From assembly GCF_003334335.1 (NCBI RefSeq), contig NZ_QOWQ01000079.1: a DNA stretch of 4,361 bases. One strand, written 5' to 3'. Both the position numbers and the translations under genes were made by a program. The number at the start of each line of letters is the position of its first letter. Position 1 is the first letter of the stretch. This document shows positions 1,276-1,541 of the stretch, in pieces. Origin of the DNA: Escherichia coli (GTDB lineage: Bacteria > Pseudomonadota > Gammaproteobacteria > Enterobacterales > Enterobacteriaceae). The notes under the pieces are model-generated. The model saw nothing but the letters and a program-made list of their open reading frames with translations, was not told where the DNA came from and ran no database searches.

Positions 1276-1541
1276 GCTGAAAAAGAAAACATCAGATGGT
1301 TAGTCGGGTATCAGTTATCTGGTGAAATTTTTAAATACCTCACAATTCAGGAAGGTGATTATTGTTTTTCTGGTGGGGAATTTGTTAAAAATCACTCCGC
1401 ATGATGAATCCCCCTAAGCGGTGGGGCGACTGGCAAGGCTCCATTACGATGGTCACAATCCGCAGATTTAGTTTGCCAGGCTGAATCTACCGGGAGGCAC
1501 CCGGCATCATGCATAATGTGGAAAATTGGAAATGTATTCAG

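Follow-up and report, generated by a model that had tools for sequence, protein, structure and literature searches.

The small RNAs (sRNAs) closest to the locus analyzed here are encoded beside Shiga toxin genes. The RNA called STnc100, which is EcOnc27 of prophage Sp5 in strain Sakai and sRNA103 in EDL933, binds Hfq, is encoded immediately 3′ of stx2B, and is paired with a convergent anti-sRNA in a dyad (PMC4104026, PMC7873438, PMC12711010); EcOnc27 and its convergent partner AsxR have been described as an "sRNA dyad" (Tree et al. 2014). Hfq binding and expression in lysogens have been reported for the homologues EcOnc27, EcOnc05, and PasD (PMC4104026, PMC8550237). PasD1 and PasD2 of enteropathogenic Escherichia coli (EPEC) E2348/69 and EcOnc13, EcOnc06, and EcOnc04 of Sakai have a related core RNA, PasD2 scoring 41 bits against the STnc100 covariance model (RF02076), and a common origin of PasD and STnc100-type RNAs has been proposed (Zhu et al. 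2026). Variants upstream of the STnc100/EcOnc27-type RNAs are among the best genomic predictors of hemolytic-uremic syndrome (HUS) (PMC12711010). In the searched papers that mention these RNAs, we found no description of the promoter of STnc100, EcOnc27, or PasD.

Here, we analyze a 4,361-nt stretch of E. coli DNA (contig NZ_QOWQ01000079.1), referred to as the window, which carries two such sRNA genes in tandem. An original prediction had pointed to an AT-rich inverted repeat, TGTGA-N14-TCACA, at the head of each of two modules (copies A and B) and had proposed it to be an operator for a dimeric DNA-binding protein or part of a promoter. The analysis does not support the operator. The box is better read as an ordinary promoter block on the two genes, and on balance probably as the core of an upstream promoter for a 5′-extended form of the sRNA.

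Results

The window is 100% identical to the late region of a lambdoid prophage of E. coli DETEC-S792. It contains a DNA methyltransferase gene (positions 7 to 945), a prophage tRNA cluster on the plus strand (986 to 1235; a CAT-anticodon tRNA annotated in RefSeq as Ile, followed by Arg-TCG and Arg-TCT), a terminator-like hairpin after the cluster (1249 to 1266), and a gene for a 660-amino-acid SASA-family (nanS-p-type) esterase (2207 to 4189). The 971 nt between the tRNAs and the esterase gene (1236 to 2206) are noncoding and, directly after the tRNA terminator, include a plus-strand remnant of the 3′ end of a DUF3927-family gene (ctgaaaaagaaaacatcagatggttag, 1270 to 1305). DUF3927 is a family of small membrane-protein genes, and only its last codons are left in the window. 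In related loci, an intact DUF3927 gene directly precedes the conserved block described below, in many of them with the block ~30 nt past the stop codon, and in PasD-type loci the DUF3927 stop codon overlaps the −35 element of the sRNA. Just past the esterase gene, there is a weak match to Esr41 on the minus strand (4195 to 4269; 23 bits, E = 0.36, far under the gathering score), which adjoins a GC-rich hairpin beside a plus-strand A-run (a T-run on the minus strand). Esr41 is a frequent neighbor of PasD-type genes (Zhu et al.).

In phage 933W, stx2AB lies between the tRNAs and the esterase gene in the same frame as that of the window. The EcOnc27 locus likewise occupies the same site, from the late-region moron site to the nanS-p-type esterase gene, and has the same upstream architecture (TCACAATTCAG...TTGnCT...TTTGTTAAAAA) and a convergent short RNA on the other strand. 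It differs from the window, which has two complete units, each a putative sRNA dyad, in tandem at the stx site of the Stx phages, no stx, and different RNA variable regions. This tandem arrangement is rare, being present over at least 80% of its length in only 6 of 5,426 complete E. coli genomes, whereas module B and its downstream region alone are present in ~1,500 of them.

Both modules are plus-strand genes of the STnc100 family (also EcOnc27, sRNA103, PasD-like), which is also, by covariance model, the family of the EcOnc27/sRNA103/STnc100 RNAs of Sp5 and 933W. Copy A (1369 to 1577) scores 122.1 bits and copy B (1773 to 1985) scores 147.2 bits against RF02076 (gathering threshold, 47 bits), and both cover model positions 1 to 206. 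The core helix opens at G1399 in copy A and at G1803 in copy B. Each copy ends in a terminator-like hairpin with a T-run (1540 to 1567 with the T-run to 1573 in copy A; 1955 to 1974 in copy B), as expected of independent units. The 5′ boundary of the Rfam model (1369 and 1773) fits neither of the two predicted starts discussed below.

Each gene faces a convergent short RNA gene on the minus strand. The partner of copy A (1578 to 1640) resembles AsxR, AgvB, and EcOnc03 (GTATtCTCATGC...TTGCCCG...CGGGCTTTTTTT), differs from them in its 5′ variable region, and is preceded by a promoter-like site, TTGAAA-18-TACTAT (1674 to 1645, minus strand). The partner of copy B (1985 to 2040, terminator at 2013 to 1992) is near-identical to the EcOnc08/21 region of Sakai Sp4 and also matches an EPEC RIL-seq candidate (E2348C_1409.E2348C_1408.IGR). 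The Rfam models of AgvB and AsxR gave no match to either convergent RNA at an E value of ≤1, and the assignment of the first partner as AsxR/AgvB-like is therefore one of sequence similarity. Minus-strand terminators and promoter-like sites are present, and the sequences themselves, in part also an alignment, show the likeness to AsxR/AgvB (module A) and to EcOnc08 and the EPEC intergenic candidate (module B).

The STnc100 core (1399 to 1511 and 1803 to 1927 in the window) is far more widespread than the label "sRNA of Stx phages" suggests. It consists of GGUGAAU, a hairpin, a variable region, and CACCGGGAGGCACCCGGCACC, and it is closed by GCAUGGUG/CACCAUGC. Among the matches listed, an 18-mer of the core occurs in IMG/VR and in species-representative genomes of Citrobacter, Enterobacter, Pantoea, Erwinia, Rahnella, Cedecea, Klebsiella, Salmonella, and others. 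The stem of the first hairpin changes its sequence and keeps its pairing (CCCCC/GGGGG, GCGGC/GCGC, and CCUUUC/GAAAGG), a structural conservation that is unusual for an Hfq-dependent sRNA. Core units are often in tandem, with three to five copies ~250 to 260 nt apart. In two IMG/VR contigs, the core is interrupted right after the 5′ strand of the first hairpin by CTGTCTCTTGATCAGATCT, which we take to resemble the Tn5 inside end.

A single-stranded 3′ part of copy A (1515 to 1527, AAUGUGGAAAAUU) is 85% complementary over 13 nt to the box of copy B (1739 to 1751, AAUUCUUCACAUU). The reported target motif of PasD is CUCACA. The 3′ part of copy A could pair with the 5′ leader of copy B, or the complementarity could be due to chance.

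Further analysis of the box confirmed the half-sites and their positions. In copy A, GTGA (1322 to 1325) faces TCACA (1340 to 1344), and the repeat (1322 to 1344) pairs over 4 bp only. In copy B, TGTGA (1726 to 1730) and TCACA (1745 to 1749) are part of longer 7-bp arms, ATGTGAA (1725 to 1731) and TTCACAT (1744 to 1750), with a 12-nt spacer. A hand count gave the predicted 26 identities in 34 positions between 1321 to 1354 and 1726 to 1759, and a repeat search gave 77% identity over 47 nt (1322 to 1368 versus 1727 to 1773). The box begins 78 nt (copy A) or 77 nt (copy B) upstream of GCATG(A/G)TGAATCC, in agreement with the ~78 bp originally given. The pattern GTGA-N14-TCAC is found at 1322 to 1343 and 1727 to 1748 and nowhere else in the window, compared to 0.06 expected from shuffled sequences; however, the two sites go back to the duplication of a single unit and hence do not count as independent events. 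Inverted repeats of this size are also common in the surrounding DNA. For instance, with spacers of 10 to 18 nt, the 971-nt intergenic stretch contains 75 four-base and 28 five-base inverted repeats, compared to 34 and 8.4 in shuffles. The possibility that the box forms an RNA hairpin or terminator was rejected, the fold being no better than those of shuffles in copy A (−2.4 kcal/mol, z = +0.67) and weak in copy B (−5.7 kcal/mol, z = −2.0).

Homologues were gathered without conditioning on the box, from IMG/VR contigs that share an exact 18-mer with the RNA core (among the matches listed), and further ones were gathered conditioned on the right-hand block only. Many are closely related prophages, and the conservation counts are therefore not independent. 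In the unconditioned set, TCACA lies 57 to 58 nt before the G of GCATGG in 21 of 24 distinct E. coli-type upstream regions (among the matches listed). The left arm behaves differently. Among the matches listed, GTGA is kept in 11 of 49 distinct upstream variants and absent from 38, and 9 of the 11 have it at a spacing of 13 nt; the N14 spacing is found only in the window's own two copies. The sequences that replace the left arm include GAGAA, GGGAA, GTTAA, CCGAA, the T-run of a tRNA terminator, and, in 933W, unrelated sequence. The commonest E. coli version, found at 80 to 90% identity in ~1,734 of 5,426 complete genomes, reads GGAGAAATTTTTAAATACCTCACAATTCAG, with GGAGAAAT...TCACA at the site of the repeat and no inverted repeat. 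The 933W/Sp5 and post-tRNA variants also lack the left arm, so 933W, unlike the window, has no inverted repeat.

The right arm stays the same in variants with different left arms and never follows a change in the left arm, meaning that the two arms do not covary. Conservation of the inverted repeat in homologous prophages, on which the proposed operator depended, is thus not seen, and none of the features of a generic palindromic operator (both arms kept, fixed spacing, co-changing arms) was found among the 49 variants. The box shares the half-site letters TGTGA/TCACA with a site for the cyclic AMP receptor protein (CRP), except that copy A has GGTGA. The CRP arrangement, a 22-bp palindrome with half-sites 6 bp apart, was not found; as originally noted, the spacing does not fit, with 14 nt in the window and 13 nt in those homologues in which the arm is present, and the left half-site is not conserved.

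What is conserved in the 49 distinct upstream variants is asymmetric. From 5′ to 3′, the profile reads TTTAAAT (often TGtTAAAT, or more generally TGnTAAAT), 2 to 3 free bases, the invariant block TCACAATTCAG, GGTTGAy, TTGyCTG, ~15 free bases, TTTGTTAAAA, 7 to 8 bases, and GCATGGTGAATCC, which opens the core helix. Conservation is highest at TTTAAAT and TCACAATTCAG and low in the left arm. These conserved parts contain two hexamers that resemble a sigma-70 −10 element, TAAATn and CACAAT. In copy A, they are TAAATA (1332 to 1337), a candidate −10 of an upstream promoter (P1), and CACAAT (1341 to 1346) within the block (1340 to 1350). In copy B, they are an extended −10-like TGtTAAATT (1734 to 1742) in the spacer of the repeat and CACATT (1746 to 1751) within TCACATTTCAG (1745 to 1755), which differs from the block consensus by one change. 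The original prediction had found no convincing sigma-70 −10 hexamer. Its suggestion that the box is part of a promoter stands as the best reading, somewhat more probable than otherwise, with the −10-like hexamers inside the box rather than downstream of it and another promoter, P2, further 3′.

CACAAT has the highest mean −10 score anywhere in the upstream region, ahead of TAAATn and the TAAAAA of P2. Divergent variants keep TGn and T-A-n-n-n-T in place (TGtTAAATT, TGtTACATA, and TGcTATGTT), with gTGTAATCT lying one base upstream. The two variants that break CACAAT (CACAAC and CTCAAT) both retain TGtTAAAT, and the E. albertii version has CATAAT. All these cases of variation are few and mutually related. 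TGtTAAATT of copy B has the form of an extended −10 element (A at position 2, T at position 6, and a preceding TGn). Copy A and the common T-run variant lack this TG, and their hexamers (TAAATA and TAAATG) lack T at position 6; CACAAT of copy A has both the A and the T.

A −35 hexamer was not found 16 to 18 bp upstream; the hexamers at that distance, TATCAG (copy A) and CATACG (copy B), match TTGACA at no more than one position, and a consensus scan called no plus-strand promoter at the box. A −35 element is optional in sigma-70 promoters of the extended −10 class. Copy B and many homologues resemble this class in having TGtTAAATT, no −35 element, and a start that would lie 6 to 8 nt downstream. 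Copy A and the T-run variants depart from it, and here the overlapping CACAAT may be the hexamer actually used.

The block is confined to the Escherichia lineage, and among 81 distinct occurrences of TAAAT-N3-TCACAATTCAG, all those in enterobacterial phage contigs precede the STnc100 core. The idea that it is an autonomous module of other genes was rejected, as nine matches in unrelated contigs share nothing else. A block-bearing copy beside iraM in E. coli K-12 was looked for and is absent. The leader from TCACA to the core showed no conserved fold (RNAalifold with 23 diverse long forms; z = −0.4 and +1.0 for single folds). Sites for sigma-E, sigma-54, sigma-S, LexA, ArcA, and FNR and a lac-operator half-site, compared by eye, were dismissed because their spacing does not fit the box.

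Between the box and the RNA core lies the second candidate promoter, P2 (TTGnnn-18-TGnTAAAAA), which ends 7 to 8 nt before G1399 or G1803. In copy A (1362 to 1391), it consists of TTGTTT (1362 to 1367), an 18-nt spacer, and TGtTAAAAA (1383 to 1391), with G1399 following after 7 nt; in copy B (1767 to 1796), it consists of TTGATT (1767 to 1772), an 18-nt spacer, and TGtTAAAAA (1788 to 1796), followed by G1803. The same geometry is found where a 5′ end has been located. The 5′ end of PasD2 was placed by RNA-seq coverage at NC_011601 position 741157, where the coordinates of RIL-seq fragments also begin. This position is the G of GCAUGGUGAAUCC (GCATGGTGAATCC) and is preceded by TTGACT-18-TAAAAA-N7. 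PasD-type loci share this proximal promoter (TTGAyT-18-TAAAAA-N7-G), with the 5′ end at the G of GCAUGGUGAAUCC, and Sakai EcOnc06 and EcOnc04 have a PasD2-like arrangement. They differ from the window in having neither the TCACAATTCAG block nor the box, and their RNAs are ~160 to 195 nt long. In other Enterobacterales, textbook sigma-70 promoters end ~7 nt before the core GGUGAAU, several of them with TGtTAAATT as the −10 element. The −10 element that the original prediction missed for a start near the head of the RNA core therefore exists. Block-bearing loci conserve the P2 elements just as well, and G1399 or G1803 could therefore be the main start.

For O157:H7, two variants past stx2B have been reported as the strongest predictors of HUS, a T/C single nucleotide polymorphism at ~90 nt and a T deletion at ~103 nt (PMC12711010). 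Both map in or next to TTTGTTAAAAAAATTTCG (933W ~3044 to 3058, with numbering that may be off by one; window equivalents, 1381 to 1398 and 1786 to 1802). This sequence comprises the extended −10 element of P2 and the spacer between it and the start and is not obviously a seed region.

The published sizes of homologous RNAs bear on which start is used. Three RNAs come from genes without the block: PasD/EcOnc13 is 172 to 173 nt by RNA-seq and ~187 nt on blots from the group that sized EcOnc27, EcOnc06 is predicted at 160 nt and ran at ~177 nt, and EcOnc04 is predicted at 194 nt and ran at ~222 nt, the latter two being 11 to 14% above their predicted lengths. Since these RNAs exceed the lengths given by a start at the core, the blots overestimate by ~9 to 14%. 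EcOnc27 of the Stx2 phage Sp5, whose gene has the block, gave bands of ~235 and 247 nt. Calculated on 933W, the RNA would be ~172 nt long if started at the core helix, 225 nt if started 7 nt past TAATCT (at an A of TCACA), and ~216 nt if started 7 nt past CACAAT. Read-through to the next plus-strand terminator would give ~283 to 285 nt and thus does not explain the EcOnc27 sizes. Allowing for a 9 to 14% overestimate, the two EcOnc27 bands fit the two upstream starts and not P2. We infer a 5′ end of the long form between about −9 and +23 relative to the T of TCACA (T1340 in copy A). The argument rests cleanly on one locus, EcOnc27; the EcOnc05 and EcOnc06 probes also match paralogues. EcOnc05 of Sp4, which is block bearing, agrees numerically (~222 nt) and was discounted, since paralogues in Sp11 and Sp17 match its probe as well.

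Discussion

On balance, the conserved sequence and the RNA sizes argue that the box is the core of an upstream promoter without a −35 element, together with its start region, which would produce a 5′-extended form of the sRNA. Its functional parts would be asymmetric. The A/T-rich spacer of the apparent repeat would supply a −10-like element (TAAATA in copy A and TGtTAAATT in copy B), and TCACAATTCAG would supply a second, overlapping one (CACAAT/CACATT) as well as the start region. RNA polymerase with sigma-70 would then start at about 1344 to 1354 (copy A) and 1749 to 1759 (copy B), and termination at the intrinsic terminators near 1573 and 1979 would yield transcripts of ~220 to 230 nt. The first 45 to 55 nt of these RNAs, from TCACA to G1399 or G1803, would form an unstructured leader ahead of the conserved multihelix core, and P2, within that leader, could start a form of ~175 nt at G1399 and G1803, which is the start used by relatives without the box. 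The left arm, GTGA(A), would lie in the promoter spacer at about −20, its complementarity to TCAC would be incidental, and a change of GTGA to CACT would be expected to do little. The choice of hexamers that work as the −10 element, and the start positions with it, is an inference step from conserved hexamers to initiation, and one point against P1 is that eleven invariant bases exceed what a −10 element and a start site need.

These eleven bases would suit a protein site better than a start region, which is one argument for the alternative to which we give the most weight, unlikely as it is. The box would then be an asymmetric regulatory region for P2, with TTTAAAT, TCACAATTCAG, and GGTTGAC at about −70 to −38 from G1399 or G1803 contacted by an activator, the alpha-CTD of RNA polymerase, or a nucleoid protein, and the core-helix G would be the sole primary start. 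Consistent with this, TTGnnn-18-TGnTAAAAA-N7-G is conserved and matches the measured 5′ end of PasD2, and all distant relatives start at the core helix. However, the EcOnc27 bands are 40 to 60 nt too long for such a start and no band of ~190 nt has been reported, PasD and EcOnc06 do without the block although they have better −35 hexamers, and no known factor consensus was recognized among those compared (CRP, LexA, ArcA, FNR, sigma-E, and sigma-54). The long 5′ end might instead be made by cleavage, the box being an RNA-level element (a processing site or a 5′ seed) in transcripts that enter from upstream, such as those of DUF3927 or the tRNA operon or stx/pR′ read-through. Depending on the phage, the block directly follows the DUF3927 stop codon, stx2B, or a tRNA terminator, and because it is close behind the DUF3927 stop in many loci, the long form could derive from cleavage of a longer transcript. 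In some variants, the promoter features are very weak (for example, a T-run with neither TG nor a −35 element), Hfq-dependent sRNAs often have their most conserved seed at the 5′ end, and the complementarity between the two copies described above would suit a seed. Yet TAAAT, which a cleavage site would not need, is kept before the block despite the differing upstream contexts, strong terminators precede the block in tRNA-linked variants and tandem arrays, the leader has neither a conserved fold nor covariation, and TCACAAUUCAG fits the RNase E motif RN|WUU (PMC7547250) only loosely. Taken together, these points leave cleavage improbable, next in weight after a regulatory region for P2.

The remaining explanations are much less probable. 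If the repeat TGTGA-N14-TCACA were a palindromic operator, a dimeric protein would bind it and thereby control the sRNA promoter. In favor of this, one can cite the presence of GTGA-N14-TCAC in both window copies, the perfect 7-bp arms of copy B, and, under the promoter model, arms that flank a −10-like element, as is frequent for repressor operators. The homologues speak strongly against it, since the repeat symmetry is lost in them. Among the matches listed, 38 of the 49 variants have no GTGA and 9 of the other 11 have it at N13, and the ~1,734-genome E. coli version, 933W/Sp5, and the post-tRNA variants are all without the repeat. In addition, the arms do not covary, only 4 bp of copy A can pair, the local DNA is rich in inverted repeats of such size, and the spacing is wrong for CRP. 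A dimeric operator is therefore not supported and seems very improbable. The probability we assign to the box having no function of its own is the lowest of all. The similarity between the two boxes would then be due only to the common descent and recent duplication of the modules, in keeping with the two copies being paralogues and with the close relatedness of many homologues, which makes the conservation counts nonindependent. What it fails to account for is that TCACAATTCAG is invariant while flanks of 15 to 20 nt diverge freely, across differing upstream neighbors and RNA variable regions.

A bolder proposal, which we hold only tentatively and consider doubtful, is that TTTAAAT-TCACAATTCAG was added in the Escherichia lineage and supplies STnc100-type genes with another promoter upstream. 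The 5′-extended form would begin with the invariant (A)CAAUUCAG, which would serve as a further seed or would decoy the UGUGAG-type seeds of sister sRNAs such as PasD, and one gene would thereby yield two regulators with different target sets. Alternatively, the 11-mer could be the site of a putative monomeric regulator that couples the sRNAs to a host signal. That the box is the promoter region of a known sRNA family is unsurprising in itself, and a CRP-like or dimeric operator is removed as a false lead. STnc100/EcOnc27-type RNAs flank Shiga toxin genes, and the two candidate start regions of block-bearing genes, the box being the upstream one, provide precise targets for 5′-end mapping and promoter mutagenesis.
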